Part shown: positions 5,650 to 41,147 of the stretch, one piece after another
How the letters are laid out: each line of letters begins with the position of its first letter
Numbering within the stretch: position 1 is the stretch's first letter
Assembly (NCBI GenBank): GCA_017513085.1
Contig: JAFWDK010000015.1
Span: forward strand, 128,001-192,000
DNA length: 64,000 nt
Origin: Clostridiales bacterium
GTDB lineage: Bacteria > Bacillota > Clostridia > Saccharofermentanales > Saccharofermentanaceae
Reading direction: 5' to 3'
The notes under the pieces: generated by a model
What the model was told of the DNA's origin: nothing
Seen by the model: the letters and a program-made list of their open reading frames with translations, nothing else
Database searches by the model: none
Made by a program: the position numbers and the translations under genes

Positions 5650-6158
5650 AGACCCAGCTTCTTATAGATCCCTTCGATGAAGGGTGTCTTATGCTGGATA
5701 TACTGATCGATATCATGCGGGAAAAGCACTGCTCCCTCTTCCTTTATGCGGCTGTATTCAACGACCGCCTCCGGATGAGCCCTCAGATAATCCCGGAAAG
5801 AAACATGCCGCTTCAGTTCCGATGCATCCTTACAGCAGACATACATGTGGTGATTTCGGAGGTGCTCTTTCCCTTCATATCCGAACACTTCACGTCCCGG
5901 AATGTCCTTGTTTCCTTCGTGGTAGTACCCGATTTTCGAAAGAGCACTCACCACGGAAGGAAACACGGATTCATCCTCGATCACCACATCGATATCGATG
6001 ATTGGTTTGGCAGAAAGTCCTTTTACCGAAGTACTTCCCACGTGCTCGATCCGAAGCGCCAGATCTCCGAGCGCATCTTCAAGCTCCGACTTTATCTTCA
6101 AAAAATCCTGCTCCCAAGCGCAATCATAGGGAACCACTTTGATCGTTCTCACTGCCAT
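5646..6158 (-). CDS. GrpB family protein (nucleotidyltransferase fold)
   Basis: IEHVGSTSVKGLSAKPIIDID, FRDYLRAHP. Start at MAVRT. Confidence 0.9.
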   Translation of the reverse strand: MAVRTIKVVPYDCAWEQDFLKIKSELEDALGDLALRIEHVGSTSVKGLSAKPIIDIDVVIEDESVFPSVVSALSKIGYYHEGNKDIPGREVFGYEGKEHLRNHHMYVCCKDASELKRHVSFRDYLRAHPEAVVEYSRIKEEGAVLFPHDIDQYIQHKTPFIEGIYKKLGL

Positions 6159-6172
6159 TTTTCTTTCCTCTC

Positions 6173-7063
6173 TTACTTCTTCTTGATCGGGATCCACAGC
6201 TCGCAGAAGACCTCCGGATGTGTGCCGTCGAAGTACAGCTCGTAGTCCGTCTGTTCCGATGCTTCGTAGCCCATCTGCGGCAGGAACTCCTTATAGAACT
6301 TCACCCATGTTTTCGCGATGCAATCGCCGTCTTCTCCCACACAGTCAAAGACCACATATGTGCCCGGGGTAACGTCCCAGATGCGGAAGCCTTTCTTTTC
6401 CAGTTCCGCCTGGTCAAACTCTTTCGTGTCCTCATCGATGATGATTCCGATGCCATACTCGAAGGTATCTTTTCCTTCAGTCGTCGGAGAGCAAAGACCA
6501 TAAAGATCACGCTTTCCATCTTCACGCAGCATCCAGATCGGAGAGAGCATCTGGTTGCTGTTGACCTCGCCCCAGAAATCCGCCACCTCGTGGTTGGCTT
6601 CGTCGTTAATGATCGCGTTACTGAATTCTCTTACCAGTGCGATAAACTTCTTTTCTTTTGTTTGAACAATACGGTAATCCATACTTTTACCACCTTTCAC
6701 AGATAAAGTAATCGTAAGCGGATTAAAAAGCACCAGCTTGACGGGTTCTTCTCTGGCTGTTTTTGGAGCAACACCGTGAAACCTCGTGAATGCTTTGGTA
6801 AAGCTTTCCGGTGTCTCATAGCCGTACTTCATCGCCAGATCCGTGATCTTCGCATCGGTCTCCACCAGTTCTTTTCCCGCCAGAGACAAGCGGCGGCTTC
6901 TGATATATGTGTTGGCCGTTAAGCCCGTCACGAAACTGAAAGCTCTGTGAAACTCGTAGCTCGACGTGTGCACCTGCCTGGCTACGTCTTCATAGTTGAT
7001 CTCCTCGAGAAGATGCTCTTCCATATACGTGATGGCTTTCTGTAATGCTTCGATCCATTCCAT
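6173..7063 (-). CDS. AraC family regulator with GyrI-like effector domain
   Basis: YIRSRRLSLA, YGYETPESFTKAFTRFHG, C-terminal CELWIPI. Confidence 0.9.
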   Translation of the reverse strand: MEWIEALQKAITYMEEHLLEEINYEDVARQVHTSSYEFHRAFSFVTGLTANTYIRSRRLSLAGKELVETDAKITDLAMKYGYETPESFTKAFTRFHGVAPKTAREEPVKLVLFNPLTITLSVKGGKSMDYRIVQTKEKKFIALVREFSNAIINDEANHEVADFWGEVNSNQMLSPIWMLREDGKRDLYGLCSPTTEGKDTFEYGIGIIIDEDTKEFDQAELEKKGFRIWDVTPGTYVVFDCVGEDGDCIAKTWVKFYKEFLPQMGYEASEQTDYELYFDGTHPEVFCELWIPIKKK

Positions 7064-36517: not shown

Positions 36518-38050
36518 ATGAAATTGGAAATCATGGATACCACCCTCAGAGATGGCGAACAGACCCCGGGAGTATCATTCTCCCCGAGCGAAAAACTCAG
36601 CATAGCAAAGATATTGCTTGATGAGGTTAAGGTCGACCGCGTCGAAGTTACCTCTGCACGTATATCCGACGGCGATTTTGAAGCGCTTTGCAAGATCACA
36701 GAATGGGCAAAAGAGAAGGGTTACCTGGATAGTATTGAAGTATTGGCTTTTGTTGACCGTGGTCATTCTCTTTCCTGGATCGAGAATGCCGGCGGGCATG
36801 TCGTCAATCTTCTCTGCAAGAGCTCTCTGCATCATCTTTCGGCTCAGCTTGGAAAGACGCCTCAAGAGCATGTAGGCGAGATCCGTCGGGTGATTGAAGA
36901 TGCTAATTCACGTGGCATGCGCATCAATGTTTATCTGGAAGACTGGTCGAATGGGATCCAGAAGGATCCGGAATATGTTAAGATGCTCGTCTCAGAACTG
37001 TCAGTCCTTCCTGTCGAGCGCTTCATGCTGGCAGATACTCTCGGAGTTCTGACACCGGATATGACGTATGAATATGTATCGAAGATGACAGAGCTTTTTC
37101 CGGAAGTGCACTTCGACTTCCATGCCCATAACGATTACGACATGTCGGTAGGAAATACGATCATGGCGGTAAAAGCAGGTGCTAAGGGCGTTCACGTTAC
37201 AGTTAACGGACTTGGTGAGCGTGCAGGAAATGCCCCGTTGGCCTCAATCGTCGGTGCAGTGGCGGACTTTTGTGAGGACCGTGAGACCGGTATCGAAGAG
37301 GCTGCTTTGAATCATGTAAGTAAGCTGGTCGAGAGTTTTTCGGGAATGAGGATCCCGAAGAATCAGCCGATCACGGGTGCCAGTGTTTTTACGCAGACCT
37401 GTGGTGTACATGCAGATGGTGATACGAAGGATTCTTTATACTGCAATAAGCTGGCGCCGGAGAGATTCGGACGCATGCGCCGGTATGCACTCGGAAAGTC
37501 CAGCGGTCGGGCCAGTATTGCGAAAAACCTTGAGGAATTCGGTTTGGATCTGGATAAAGAATCCTTGAAAAAAGTTACAGCCAGGATCGTCGAGATGGGT
37601 GACAACAAGGAGAGTGTATTGACGGATGAACTGCCGTATATCGTGGCCGATGTGCTGGGCAAGGGCAATGGGGAATCCAATGTTAAGATCTTGAATTACT
37701 ATGTCTGCCATGCCCGGGATCTGAAACCTGTTGCGACGATGAGGATCCAGATCGACGATAAAGTCCATGAGGCGAGTGCATCCGGTGATGGTCAGTTTGA
37801 CGCCTTCATGCGCGCTTTGCAGAAGATCTATCAACAATTCGGAAGAACGCTTCCTTTCTTCGCCGACTATACGGTAACGATTCCACCGGGAGGCCGCACG
37901 AATGCTTTTGTCGAGAGTGTTATCACCTGGCGGGACGGCGATCATGAGTTTAAGACACGAGGCCTCGACCGAGATCAGGTCGCGGCTGCGATCAAGGCGA
38001 CTGCCAAGATGCTGAATATCATTTACGAGCAGGAGCAGTTGAACGAGTGA
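36518..38050 (+). CDS. cimA: Citramalate synthase / isopropylmalate synthase family (CimA-like)
   Basis: DTTLRDGEQ, YLEDWSNG, HAHND, GLGERAGN, C-terminal regulatory domain. Confidence 0.8.
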   Translation: MKLEIMDTTLRDGEQTPGVSFSPSEKLSIAKILLDEVKVDRVEVTSARISDGDFEALCKITEWAKEKGYLDSIEVLAFVDRGHSLSWIENAGGHVVNLLCKSSLHHLSAQLGKTPQEHVGEIRRVIEDANSRGMRINVYLEDWSNGIQKDPEYVKMLVSELSVLPVERFMLADTLGVLTPDMTYEYVSKMTELFPEVHFDFHAHNDYDMSVGNTIMAVKAGAKGVHVTVNGLGERAGNAPLASIVGAVADFCEDRETGIEEAALNHVSKLVESFSGMRIPKNQPITGASVFTQTCGVHADGDTKDSLYCNKLAPERFGRMRRYALGKSSGRASIAKNLEEFGLDLDKESLKKVTARIVEMGDNKESVLTDELPYIVADVLGKGNGESNVKILNYYVCHARDLKPVATMRIQIDDKVHEASASGDGQFDAFMRALQKIYQQFGRTLPFFADYTVTIPPGGRTNAFVESVITWRDGDHEFKTRGLDRDQVAAAIKATAKMLNIIYEQEQLNE

Positions 38051-38054
38051 GGAG

Positions 38055-38096
38055 AAAAAAAGTCGAATACCTGATTTCAGGAGATTCGACTTTTTT
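38055..38096. terminator. Bidirectional terminator between cimA and serpin
   Basis: A7-GTCGAAT...ATTCGAC-T6. Confidence 0.8.
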
Positions 38097-38196
38097 ATTT
38101 TGTCAGAAGAAAGTCGCAAACGCGAAAACGTCCAATGTCGACTTCCCCTTTTACCCACCTTCACGAATTCCGCCACGAATTCCGCAAGGAGCAAAT

Positions 38197-39645
38197 TCAA
38201 GCAACGGGCTGGTTGACGATACCGATAAACAGCGGTACTCCGGTGGGGCTGACGATCTCAAAGATAAATGGACGGTCAAAGACGAGTTCGATCCGATCGT
38301 CCGGCGGCATAGCGGCACCCGCGAGCATCATTGCGGTAACGGCTGCGGCTTTACATCCCTCTTCATCGATCGTGACGCGTACGTTCTGAATGGCCTGAGA
38401 AATACAGAGATCGTTTTGCCCTGTTCCAAGAGTGGAAAAGTCAGCGCTAGAAGAATCGAAGATATCCGTGATACCCATCGATTTCAGTTTTCCGTTCAGA
38501 TCCAGCGAGTTCGATATATCGAACTTCGGAAGAGAAAGCGTGACGAGCATGTCCTTTTTTGCGACATTGTTTTTGTTAAGCATAAAACCGAGACATTCTT
38601 CGTCAGACAGAAGTGCTTCCGGTGAGATTCCTTCATTGGGAAGGATCAGCCGCATATAACCGTTTCCATTCGTATCGAGAGAAATGGAGTCGAAGGATTC
38701 ACCACGGTAGAACATGGTGTGATTTTCGGCTTTCATGAAATCACAGGTCAGATCCTTGTCCGGTGCGTGGAAAGTGCCGGATTTGGTAGCCTGTTCATTA
38801 AACGGTAAGTCCCATTTTGCGGAATAATTCACCGTGGACACCAGAGCCAGAACGGTCTGCGGATCCAGCTTCAGATCCTGTACAAAATCGGAAAGAAGAC
38901 CATCGGTCTGTTCGTTGATCCAGGAGCGGTACATTTCATTGTATTTTTCGGATGCCGGATCACCGGTGAACGCGGAAGCGTAGTAATAGGCGGCCAGGTT
39001 TTCCAGAACCTTGGAATCGTACTTGCATTTGTTGTTCGTCCAAAGTGAATCGGCGAGGATACAGGTGGCCATCCCATCATTCGCATACGTCACCTCAAAA
39101 AGCGACTTGCTGTGGTTTCGGAGGGAATCTATGTCCTTTTCGTGGAGAACGTTCAGGATCTGTTGACGGCTCTGTCCACCAGAGATCTCTGCGGTCATTC
39201 CCAGAGCCAGATAGAGGCTGAGAGGAGAGAACACAAAGTTTTCCTTACTGTCCGGTTCCGACATGGCGCTGACGACTTCTTTGAAGTATTCAAAATAGGC
39301 TGTCTGGTAGCCGGTCGGCTGTTGTAAAAGCACTTCACGGGTTTCGTGCCAGAGCTTGTACTGTTTGTCAAATTCAGAGAAGGACAAAGCTTTTTCGTCC
39401 GGATACTCGGCCATTTCCGGATAGTTCGGAGCGGCCAGGACCTTCGCGGTAGCATGGCTTTCTCCGATGAGATTGCTGACGAATTTCGGAGGGAAAAGCG
39501 CCAGAAGCAGTACTGCTGCGGCGACGACGACGGCCACAGAAGAGATGAAGAGGACCTTGTGGCTCTTTTTACGGGGAGACAGATTGGGGATCAGTTTTTC
39601 GTCGATCTTTCCGATGGCATCTAATAATTCTTCGTTCTTTTTCAT
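38197..39645 (-). CDS. Membrane-anchored serpin with anti-sigma-like N-terminus
   Basis: ELLDAIGKIDEKLI, one TM, then FSPLSLYLALGM, AKWDLPF, DEEGCKAAAVT hinge, VFDRPFIF. Confidence 0.88.
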   Translation of the reverse strand: MKKNEELLDAIGKIDEKLIPNLSPRKKSHKVLFISSVAVVVAAAVLLLALFPPKFVSNLIGESHATAKVLAAPNYPEMAEYPDEKALSFSEFDKQYKLWHETREVLLQQPTGYQTAYFEYFKEVVSAMSEPDSKENFVFSPLSLYLALGMTAEISGGQSRQQILNVLHEKDIDSLRNHSKSLFEVTYANDGMATCILADSLWTNNKCKYDSKVLENLAAYYYASAFTGDPASEKYNEMYRSWINEQTDGLLSDFVQDLKLDPQTVLALVSTVNYSAKWDLPFNEQATKSGTFHAPDKDLTCDFMKAENHTMFYRGESFDSISLDTNGNGYMRLILPNEGISPEALLSDEECLGFMLNKNNVAKKDMLVTLSLPKFDISNSLDLNGKLKSMGITDIFDSSSADFSTLGTGQNDLCISQAIQNVRVTIDEEGCKAAAVTAMMLAGAAMPPDDRIELVFDRPFIFEIVSPTGVPLFIGIVNQPVA

Positions 39646-39646
39646 G

Positions 39647-40195
39647 TTATACACCTTCTTTTTCCAGTAGATCTTTCAGCTTCTTTCGGATCCGCACAAG
39701 CTTCATCTTGATGGCGGCTTCGGAGATCTTGTATCTTTCTGCGATCTCTTCGATGGAAAGAAAATACCAGTAACGGTAGAGAAAGATGTCTTTGTCTTTT
39801 GTGTTCAGGCTTCGAAGAAAACTCTCGATCAGATCCTTCAGGATCACCTGTTCTTCGATGGCACTGTCTTCTTTTCCGATGCATTCACCCAGTTCATCCA
39901 GGCAAAGTGCGGTCTGGCTGCCCTGATATTTCTGTGCATGATCCTTGCGGTACCGGTTCAACGCAAGGTTTCGGGTGATCGTGCCAAGGAAGACCGAGAG
40001 GCGGGAAGGGCGGGCAGGTGGTATGGCATTCCAGGCCCGGAACCATGTGTCATTGACACACTCTTCCGAGTCTTCGCGGCATTGAAGGATATTCTGCGCG
40101 ATGGTAGAACAGTATGCACCGTATTTTTCCGAGCATGCCGTTATGGCAGAATCGTCCCTTGCAAAGTAAAGATCCAGGATCTTTTCGTCTTCCAT
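39647..40195 (-). CDS. ECF RNA polymerase sigma factor
   Basis: EDSEECVNDTW, ITRNLALNRY, FLYRYW, IKMKLVRIRKKL. Confidence 0.92.
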   Translation of the reverse strand: MEDEKILDLYFARDDSAITACSEKYGAYCSTIAQNILQCREDSEECVNDTWFRAWNAIPPARPSRLSVFLGTITRNLALNRYRKDHAQKYQGSQTALCLDELGECIGKEDSAIEEQVILKDLIESFLRSLNTKDKDIFLYRYWYFLSIEEIAERYKISEAAIKMKLVRIRKKLKDLLEKEGV

Positions 40196-40225
40196 TTTCC
40201 ACCCTCGCTTTCGTTCTCTCACTAT

Positions 40226-40256
40226 TATAGACAAGATAGCGATGTAAAAAGTAACA
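40226..40256 (-). promoter_or_regulatory. Putative ECF promoter TGTTAC-N17-TGTCTATA
   Basis: Same geometry as the promoter at 18857-18887. Confidence 0.5.
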
Positions 40257-40321
40257 CGATTTTCGGAAAAATCAGAAAAACAAGATTGCAAATCTTTTGA
40301 TCCATACTATAATAATCATGC

Positions 40322-40376
40322 GCGGAGATTCCGCCGCCAAGCAGTTCGGGTCCGATATCCTGCTTGTAAAACCTAA
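40322..40376 (+). ncRNA. preQ1-I riboswitch candidate
   Basis: Upstream hairpin GCGGA-GA-TTCCGC; P1 AAGCAG/CTGCTT; loop TTCGGGTCCGATATC; A-rich tail GTAAAACCTAA able to form a pseudoknot. Lies just before the RBS of a VUT gene. Confidence 0.7.
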
Positions 40377-40394
40377 AACCAAAGGAGCAATTAT

Positions 40395-41147
40395 ATGCAA
40401 ACGATTCGTCGTATTCGAGAGGATTATCGTACTCTCTTACGTAGCGTACCATCCATGGTGACGGTAGCTTTCATACTTTCCGTAGTCTTCATGAACCTCA
40501 TGGCCAGTAAAGAATTATACCGGTCGGAATATTTCTGTCTCAATTGCGGTCTGGCTTTGTCCTGGATCTCTTTCTTGTGCATGGACTGCATCTGCAAGCG
40601 ATTCGGTCCGAAAGCCGCCACCAAGATCTCTATTTTGGCTATCGGCGTAAACGTGATCTGCGTAGTTATCCTGAAGCTTTTCAGCATGGCTCCGGGAAAC
40701 TGGGCGGCTTATTACTCGGCTCCGGATGCAGCAACAGGCGCGCTGGTCTCTTCCGGTGTGGACAGCACTTTCGGCGGTGCATGGTATGTTGTAGTCGGTT
40801 CCGCAGTAGCGATGTTTCTCTCCACTCTGGTGAATTCTTCTCTGAATCACTTCATCGGCAAAAAGACCGACAATGGTCATTACAGCGGATTTGCCAAGCG
40901 GTCTCTGATCTCGACGGGTATCGCCCAGTGGGTCGATAATTTCGTATTTTCCGCGATGGTATCGCACGTATTCTTCGGTTGGAACTGGACACAGGTCCTG
41001 ATCTGCTCCACGACATCCATGGCTGTCGAGCTGATTTTGGAAGCTGTTTTTTCACCTGTCGGATACCGTGTGTCCACGCGTTGGGAGAAAGAAAAGATCG
41101 GACAGGAATATATCAACCGTATGGAAAAGCTCGCCGCACAGGCATAA
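40395..41147 (+). CDS. VUT family transporter (putative queuosine precursor transporter)
   Basis: MNLMASK, DCICKRFG, STGIAQWVDN; about 6 TMs; riboswitch context. Confidence 0.8.
   Translation: MQTIRRIREDYRTLLRSVPSMVTVAFILSVVFMNLMASKELYRSEYFCLNCGLALSWISFLCMDCICKRFGPKAATKISILAIGVNVICVVILKLFSMAPGNWAAYYSAPDAATGALVSSGVDSTFGGAWYVVVGSAVAMFLSTLVNSSLNHFIGKKTDNGHYSGFAKRSLISTGIAQWVDNFVFSAMVSHVFFGWNWTQVLICSTTSMAVELILEAVFSPVGYRVSTRWEKEKIGQEYINRMEKLAAQA

Follow-up and report, generated by a model that had tools for sequence, protein, structure and literature searches.

An extracytoplasmic function sigma factor gene paired with a membrane serpin gene in Clostridia: a recurrent unit that may sense or buffer outside proteases

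Introduction

In the SigV-RsiV system of Bacillus subtilis, Clostridioides difficile and Enterococcus faecalis, SigV is co-transcribed with RsiV, and direct binding of lysozyme to RsiV licenses cleavage at site 1 and subsequently at site 2; the operon controls its own expression and confers protection against lysozyme. In the SigI-RsgI systems, SigI is not a canonical extracytoplasmic function (ECF) sigma factor, the N-domain of RsgI has a distinct fold, and the RsgI sensors bind polysaccharides and signal by autoproteolysis; we know of no description of an RsgI with a serpin ectodomain. Here, we describe a two-gene locus in a stretch of 64,000 nucleotides from a Clostridiales bacterium of the family Saccharofermentanaceae (assembly GCA_017513085.1, contig JAFWDK010000015.1, positions 128,001 to 192,000; this whole stretch is referred to as the window), in which an ECF sigma factor gene is directly followed by the gene for a single-pass membrane protein, termed the partner, that combines a short N-terminal head with a serpin domain. 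How gut and rumen bacteria detect proteases of host, dietary or rival origin is largely unknown, and bacterial serpins are regarded as passive shields; this unit may represent a means, as yet undescribed, by which gut bacteria sense or buffer extracellular proteases.

A preliminary description of the locus had read the partner as an anti-sigma-like protein with the serpin as protease bait, and knew of no characterized system of this kind. A full-text literature search likewise found no paper in which serpins are joined with ECF or anti-sigma factors into a single system, although most subscription journals lie outside such a search and absence from print is therefore unproven. The accessible part of PMC12484212 treats serpins and anti-sigma factors separately, and the main text of PMC8233489 mentions neither a sigma factor nor an operon.

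Results

The head and its association with ECF sigma factors

The pairing of an ECF sigma factor gene with an adjoining membrane serpin gene is a genuine and recurrent feature. The partner begins with the head, MKKNEELLDAIGKIDEKLIPNLS, which is followed by a basic patch (PRKKSHK, residues 24-30) and by the transmembrane (TM) helix VLFISSVAVVVAAAVLLLALF. The cytoplasmic part thus comprises 30 residues ahead of the helix, which consists of 21 hydrophobic residues and is followed by Pro-Pro; the linker beyond it differs in length and sequence among relatives. The cytoplasmic segment, basic patch, single TM helix, linker and full serpin of the preliminary description are all present according to the sequence and to Pfam.

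Some serpin at E<=1e-10 is found in 244 of 300 genomes of the same order. Relatives of the partner were taken from genomes of the species by a pattern scan (six loci), from the 300 same-order genomes (30 loci) and from 20 further regions. The 62 serpin open reading frames (ORFs) read in all include that of the window and count one probable duplicate genome (L001 = L013). A head motif of the LLDxIGxIDExL type was called in 39 of these (37 by regular expression and two by eye), and the other 23, among them one that ends at a contig edge (L054), carry a lipoprotein signal or another plain anchor. Counting an ECF sigma factor as upstream when its gene ended -30 to +150 nucleotides from the serpin start, we found one directly upstream of 35 of the 39 head-bearing serpins and of none of the 23 lacking the motif. 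The difference persists when sequences are collapsed at 90% identity (26/29 versus 0/22) or at 70% identity (20/23 versus 0/17). Among the 20 further regions, 13 had been chosen because the match started at query residue 6 or earlier (in one case at 37) and seven were controls with matches starting beyond residue 100; in this subset, which was picked blind to the sigma factor, a sigma was present for 11 of 12 motif-bearing serpins, for none of three motif-less ORFs at the same loci and for none of eight ORFs in the seven control loci. The adjacency of sigma and serpin is thus beyond chance, and the synteny survey that the preliminary description had called for comes out in its favour. A homologue search with residues 1-60 returned three close orthologues only, as word seeding fails on so short a head.

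Two further observations concern these loci. In a Ruminococcus relative (L003:3816-4004 and 5683-6885) the sigma gene upstream of the serpin is truncated, with query residues 47-182 remaining, and an ORF resembling a recombinase follows closely downstream on the opposite strand. At five loci (L024, L035, L045, L047 and L051) a second, headless serpin with a lipoprotein or plain TM anchor adjoins the pair of sigma and head-bearing serpin, and the two serpins could represent a sensor and an effector.

The head is not confined to serpins. The genome that contains the window encodes eight sigma factors of the same clade (35-47% mutual identity) and a ninth at 28%. Each of the eight, i.e. that of the window and seven paralogues, is followed by a single-pass partner with the same head, mostly with a four-nucleotide ATGA overlap. 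The seven paralogous partners have the head motif, the basic patch and the TM helix, with unrelated ectodomains that match no Pfam family; the head is the only part common to the partners of all eight sigmas. The paralogous pairs are located at L007, L008, L009 and L010; at the last of these (G000:C26:96500-108000), four pairs stand in tandem on one contig over about 10 kb.

A quick IQ-TREE phylogeny of the sigma factors was calculated with 39 rows; duplicates were entered once, and L032 (the sigma of which has no partner downstream) and the 28% paralogue (L011) were excluded. The serpin-partnered sigmas fall into four clades interleaved with sigmas that have other partners, and well supported branches force at least three gains or losses of the serpin label; by this tree, the serpin has been joined to at least three separate sigma clades. 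One non-serpin partner of 216 residues (L010:7309), which begins MNGKAILDMMGDLD, is sister to a serpin-partner clade beginning MNGKDMLEMMSELDE. Its pair shares 68% identity in the sigma and 55% in the head with a serpin pair from a genus-mate (L016), versus 36% and 18%, respectively, with the pair of the window. Over 32 pairs, sigma identity correlates with head identity (Spearman 0.59, Mantel-type, with none of 2000 permutations as high), a test that is weak alone because adjacent genes are co-inherited anyway and to which the ectodomain swaps lend weight. As judged from these alignments, the head variant tracks the sigma clade and not the ectodomain.

Predicted complex of the head and the sigma factor

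A complex was modelled from the sigma (33-row alignment) and partner residues 1-34 (31-row alignment), as the preliminary description had suggested for residues 1-60. The three runs scored 0.82, 0.82 and 0.81, as a measure of the model's own confidence, versus 0.02 for the best of three controls, and pass a mark that is reached by 58 of 80 solved complexes and by two of 110 mismatched pairs. The runs agree in >=90% of contacts, with a predicted local distance difference test (pLDDT) value of >=72 for the partner. In the model, partner residues 3-26 contact sigma residues 27-31, 63-83 (the end of sigma-2), 98-107 (the linker) and 116-154 (sigma-4.1 and the start of the helix-turn-helix, HTH), the tightest contacts being those of sigma 120-143 with partner 8-20. 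The head is thus predicted to lie between sigma-2 and sigma-4, as expected in silico of a functional anti-sigma factor. Inhibitory anti-sigma domains in solved complexes occupy this same clamped position. We propose that head residues 1-26 constitute a minimal anti-sigma segment.

The model predicts binding and not its sign, so the head might instead act positively, as a membrane tether or as a cofactor for the stability or activity of the sigma. The predicted clamp at sigma 63-83 and 116-154 is, from general knowledge, the site used by inhibitory anti-sigma factors and would keep the sigma closed, and we consider a positive role very improbable, even though non-canonical ECF regulation exists (accessible part of the review PMC8999054).

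The head was compared with established classes of anti-sigma factor. A class I anti-sigma domain (zf-HC2, RsrA-like or RskA-like), which is a four-helix unit of about 80-90 residues, does not describe it, as there are 30 residues only and no match to an anti-sigma domain family; nine partners with the same head (seven partners of own-genome paralogues and two from L006) gave no Pfam anti-sigma domain at E up to 1. The topology is that of RseA, RsiW and RsiV, with a single N-in TM helix, and the genome also encodes a site-2 protease (Peptidase_M50, C13:31685-32920, 4.6e-53). The partner stands outside the described anti-sigma sequence families, yet most likely works like an anti-sigma factor.

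A cleaved signal peptide at the N-terminus, which the preliminary description had named as an outcome that would speak against it, is unlikely from the sequence: the n-region of 30 residues is conserved, with its basic patch on the inner side, the helix is followed by Pro-Pro, and a lipobox is lacking. A related explanation is plain co-transcription, in which the N-terminus is a mere signal anchor or signal peptide, the sigma drives the serpin gene and the anti-sigma factor is encoded elsewhere or is absent. Its appeal is that the head matches no known anti-sigma family and that the proteins are entered in public records as 'hypothetical protein' or 'serpin B'. A conserved 22-residue motif ahead of the basic patch would, however, be superfluous for anchoring. 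The motif is missing from the lipoprotein-anchored relatives, none of which has a sigma, it co-varies with the sigma clade, it has decayed in a sigma-less orphan (L037), and the complex model passes its mark. We therefore regard plain co-transcription as improbable.

The serpin ectodomain

The sequence features that the preliminary description had listed for the serpin were all located: the shutter FSPLSL at residues 139-144, the breach tryptophan (W202, which is invariant across 47 relatives), the hinge EEGCKAAAVT starting at E428 and the signature VFDRPF at residues 455-460. P1-P1' is A444-A445 by alignment to the solved conserpin with an alpha-1-antitrypsin loop, in which MPP matches IPP; this is the same Ala-Ala pair as had been counted before. 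The inhibitory-serpin features of the fold (shutter, breach Trp and C-terminal signature), the hinge and a 17-residue P17-P1 loop are thus all present, and the sequence identifies the ectodomain as a serpin of the inhibitory type.

An AlphaFold model of the partner (47 sequences; pLDDT 81.8, predicted template-modelling score 0.81) is confident from residue 68 to the end, with low confidence for residues 1-35 and 55-64. The loop at residues 435-448 is exposed, of low pLDDT and unstructured in the model, as in a native, uninserted serpin. Foldseek with this model returned serpins only, including 1iz2 (alpha-1-antitrypsin; 1.2e-28), tengpin and miropin.

The ectodomain could alternatively be non-inhibitory and sense some ligand that is not a protease, much as the hormone-carrying serpins bind small molecules. 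Cys at P14 and Lys at P13 are unusual and would fit such a role. Against it, Gly at P15 and small residues at P12-P9 are retained in this serpin and, across both anchor classes, in almost every full-length relative, and the length of the loop and its MPP/IPP register match alpha-1-antitrypsin; this explanation seems to us hardly probable at all.

The sigma-coupled and lipoprotein-anchored relatives have in common both the YPEMxxYPDE segment ahead of the serpin and the inhibitory hinge, and the loop of the lipoprotein serpins L026-L030 (EEGVTAASFTAMMxxGA|AMPPEEE) is almost that of the window. The same inhibitor therefore occurs with two alternative anchors, of which only one is sigma-linked. 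Two more serpins are encoded in the genome (G000:C26:45241-46317 and G000:C11:74202-75287); they are 23-25% identical to that of the window and have lipoprotein signals, inhibitory-type hinges and no adjacent sigma match.

The sigma factor, its promoter and the operon

The sigma factor of 182 residues matches Sigma70_r2 (1.8e-10), Sigma70_r4_2 (3.9e-10) and Sigma70_ECF (9.3e-7) in Pfam and, above the family cut-off, TIGR02937 (5.7e-19) in NCBIfam; the Pfam scan gave no match to region 3 or region 1.1. It has the sigma-2 and sigma-4 domains only and a length within the range of about 180-200 residues, as for ECF (group 4) sigma factors, and it likewise has an adjoining regulator gene and a conserved motif with an AAC-type -35 and a CGT-type -10 element (a predicted promoter) ahead of its own operon.

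The ECF-type promoter that the preliminary description had placed ahead of the sigma gene fits TGTTAC-N17-TGTCTAT, and a layout of (T/C)GT(T/A)AC-N17-(C/T)GTCTAT is kept at the same distance 5' of the orthologous and of several paralogous sigma genes. This ECF-type layout resembles the SigX/SigW-type sites of B. subtilis. Only one site in the 3.06-Mb genome, the promoter in the window, fits the strict pattern GTTAC-N16-18-YGTCTAT, and a looser form fits 21 sites, which suggests autoregulation and a narrow regulon as far as pattern counts can indicate. A scan for the sigma-70 consensus gave two sites versus a shuffle mean of 2.5, i.e. no excess.

Both genes lie on the minus strand (Table 1). 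The sigma ORF runs from the ATG at 40195 to the TAA at 39649-39647, and after a spacer of one base (39646) the 482-residue partner ORF runs from the ATG at 39645 to the stop codon at 38199-38197, which bears out the spacing given in the preliminary description. The ribosome-binding site of the partner gene, GAAGGTG, lies within the 3' end of the sigma gene. The two-tier hairpin downstream of the partner gene was not picked up by the terminator scan, and none of 200 shuffles is equally stable; because this hairpin closes the operon and the gene beyond it is convergent, the unit consists of two genes. An Rfam search of 37900-40600 and 40270-40420 gave no matches. Metatranscriptome contigs from three libraries cover 39920-40189 of the sigma gene and 39078-39316 and 38243-38393 of the serpin gene.

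Table 1 Features of the sigma-serpin locus (positions in the window)
Feature	Position	Strand	Evidence or detail
ECF-type promoter, predicted	40224..40256	-	-35 TGTTAC 40256-40251, 17-nt spacer, -10 TGTCTATAAT 40233-40224
ECF sigma factor gene, 182 aa	39647..40195	-	sigma-2 ~39941-40105, sigma-4 ~39674-39832
Single-pass membrane protein gene (head + TM + serpin), 482 aa	38197..39645	-	ORF, Pfam
Cytoplasmic head (N-module), residues 1-26, consensus LLDxIGxIDExLI	39568..39645	-	alignment, sigma association, co-variation, complex model
TM helix, residues 31-51, N-in signal anchor	39493..39555	-	sequence; position conserved in alignment
Juxtamembrane linker, residues 52-67, probably flexible	39445..39492	-	pLDDT <50 for 55-64
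Structured pre-serpin extension, residues 68-123, YPEMxxYPDE motif	39277..39444	-	pLDDT 89-95
Serpin domain, residues 124-480	38206..39276	-	Pfam Serpin 1.3e-67; PDB conserpin 4e-37, tengpin 6e-35; Foldseek 1e-28
Reactive-centre loop, P17 E428 to P1' A445, hinge EEGCKAAAV	38311..38364	-	conserpin alignment; exposed loop; conserved hinge
Terminator hairpin + U-run, closing two-gene operon	38056..38096	-	fold -19.7 kcal/mol, z -4.9

On the other side of the promoter, about 50 nucleotides at 40336-40387 (plus strand) lie just 5' of a membrane-protein gene (40395-41147) that is putatively YhhQ-like from a reading of its sequence. This short segment matches many RNA-library contigs from several studies, in which the flanks differ on both sides, and has no Rfam match; it suggests a conserved leader element.

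Breadth of the head family and other protease traps

A profile of the head and TM helix matches 6825 representative proteins at E<=1e-3 and 93 at E<=1e-10 among 1.84 billion. The best 150 matches start nearly all at residue 1, in proteins with lengths of 47-1664 residues, and the consensus of the family is MKxE(K/R)LLDAIGxIDDxYIEEAAP...KKK..W.KWGAxAAC. A Pfam scan, which covered 73 of the 79 matches of at least 200 residues, gave serpin in seven, Big_14 in six, DUF3298 and DUF4367 in two each and an alpha-2-macroglobulin-like ectodomain in one.

The last of these, P0074, has 1664 residues and combines the same head and TM helix with A2M_BRD, A2M, bMG10, bMG3 and Big_5 matches, of which A2M_BRD (28.9 bits), A2M (24.5) and bMG10 (31.5) are all just above their cut-offs. 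It is a lead to a second, unrelated protease trap that may be mounted on the same head. P0074 is known from run assemblies only, and a metagenome scan found no relative; in the Clostridia genomes sampled, 12 homologues of P0074 lack a sigma and carry plain TM anchors. At a separate locus (L076:1955-7757, G617:C18), the start of a gene for a 1768-residue alpha-2-macroglobulin-like membrane protein is overlapped by a gene for a 174-residue protein that, to judge from its XRE-type HTH (HTH_3, 1.5e-10) and sigma-70 region 4 (1.4e-9), seems to be a hybrid regulator. At its N-terminus, the alpha-2-macroglobulin-like G617 homologue resembles the head only weakly (hhalign probability 62% over 13 columns).

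A broader proposal is that the head is a minimal, modular anti-sigma peptide of about 25 residues, present in thousands of unannotated Clostridia proteins, that links ECF sigmas to exchangeable outer domains; serpins would have been mounted on it at least three times and an alpha-2-macroglobulin-like trap at least once, with the irreversible change in conformation of the sprung trap serving as a transmembrane signal and the inhibitor being replenished on demand. We put this forward tentatively, as possible, with the balance tilting against it.

Discussion

The preliminary description receives good in silico support for an ECF sigma coupled to an anti-sigma-like protein that has a serpin as its ectodomain. 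The gene layout, the domains, the inhibitory-type hinge, the conserved promoter motif and the association and co-variation of head and sigma are observed, and binding between head and sigma is predicted; the protease trigger that would make the serpin a bait, the intramembrane proteolysis and the autoinduction are steps that we infer. The sigma would be tethered to the membrane by an N-terminal segment of ~26 residues in the partner, wedged between sigma-2 and sigma-4. The partner would cross the membrane once and show its inhibitory-type serpin (P1-P1' Ala-Ala) on the cell surface, where attack by an outside serine protease would cause the ectodomain to change state or to be consumed. The juxtamembrane stub thereby exposed, in which the flexible linker at 52-67 is a candidate site-1 cleavage region, would be trimmed and handed to the site-2 protease; cleavage within the membrane would lead to degradation of the head and free the sigma. 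The freed sigma would then transcribe from its own promoter, so that the spent serpin is replaced, and possibly from those of other genes too. This sequence of events, from the springing or consumption of the serpin by a protease, through site-2 cleavage, to release of the sigma and replacement of the inhibitor, is the likeliest of the readings that we considered, with somewhat less than an even chance of being right.

The main rival accepts the head as an anti-sigma element and takes the serpin as output and not as sensor: another envelope signal, or turnover, would free the sigma, and the single polypeptide would set the level of serpin by negative feedback. The strict promoter stands only ahead of this operon, so the serpin may be its main product. 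The same loop occurs on lipoprotein serpins without a sigma, two further lipoprotein serpins are present in the genome, and the ectodomains of the paralogous partners have no known ligand. On the other hand, from general knowledge, the outer domain is the sensor in the single-pass anti-sigma factors RsiV, RsgI and RseA, and the serpin is found on at least three sigma clades with an alpha-2-macroglobulin-like trap on the same head; such recurrence of traps would be understood more readily if the signal were the trapping of a protease. We judge it unlikely that the serpin is output alone.

Several points weigh against the protease-triggered release outlined above. The relatives surveyed are kin, so the counts overstate their independence. 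Four of the 39 head-bearing serpins have no upstream sigma: at L032 a sigma lies immediately downstream of the serpin instead; at L033, a near relative of L032, the sequence ends ~230 nucleotides past the serpin gene and a downstream sigma cannot be judged; and L046 and L037 are orphans, the motif of L037 being decayed to AMRKPDG (the loci of the downstream-sigma and orphan cases are L062, G029:C1:8000-27000, and L063, G017:C16:8000-17000). Pfam, searched at E up to 0.1, assigns the head of the window protein to no anti-sigma family, and the head and TM profile gave TM-like matches only among PDB chains, at E 0.028 or worse, with no solved chain for the head itself. The complex was modelled on alignments of our own making, and its score may profit from likeness to solved pairs of ECF sigma and anti-sigma factors. 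No RNA-library contig bridges the junction at 39645, and several stretches of the operon are uncovered. The near-identical loop on sigma-less lipoprotein serpins implies that inhibition has no need of the sigma link. The weak point of the mechanism is the step from the sprung serpin to site-1 cleavage. A complex of serpin and protease is larger than the free serpin, so entry into the site-2 protease needs an extra trimming step; by analogy with RsiV, and as speculation, a masked cleavage site could become exposed.

If protease-triggered release is true, the one-shot, irreversible serpin mechanism would act as both sensor and supply controller, a new role for serpin biochemistry, within a dedicated protease-sensing pathway in which the inhibitor is replenished on demand; the head would be a very small anti-sigma element that annotation pipelines have overlooked. 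The unit comprises one promoter, one sigma and one partner in ~2.1 kb, so it could be rebuilt in a laboratory host, and it might perhaps be usable as a protease-responsive switch.

Comparison with known systems

As in SigV-RsiV, an ECF sigma factor is adjoined by a single-pass partner, and the outer domain of RsiV binds directly to the attacking host or foreign enzyme. The cytoplasmic anti-sigma domain of RsiV is longer and its ectodomain is of the DUF3298 type, whereas here there are a head of ~26 residues and a serpin; in the present case, a protease would be sensed, by a sensor that would itself be a suicide inhibitor. With a serpin in place of a DUF3298/DUF4163-type ectodomain (the make-up of the family being taken from general knowledge), the partner does not belong to the RsiV family.

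Among serpins, tengpin from Thermoanaerobacter tengcongensis has an N-terminal region ahead of the serpin that traps the metastable native state (accessible part of PMC1905895). After the engineered conserpin, it ranks with the closest solved chains; it is clostridial and has an extra N-terminal region, as does the window serpin at residues 68-123; unlike the window serpin, it has no sigma coupling described in the accessible text of PMC1905895. PinA of C. thermocellum (PMC12484212, accessible part), the siropins and miropin are inhibitory serpins that shield surface proteins of Firmicutes and gut bacteria, as the window serpin may do; they are attached by a dockerin or lipid or are secreted, with no transcription-factor link described in the accessible sources, whereas the window serpin is sigma-linked.

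The predicted position between sigma-2 and sigma-4 and the single N-in TM helix are shared with the class I and II anti-sigma domains of RseA, RsiW, ChrR and CnrY (accessible part of PMC7406223). Those domains span ~45-90 residues, unlike the cytoplasmic part here, which has ~30 residues, no zinc motif and no Pfam match. The arrangement as a whole is like that of SigI-RsgI in cellulolytic clostridia, where, in the accessible parts of PMC10328401 and PMC6582324, there are several paralogous pairs with swappable outer sensors; here there are eight pairs.

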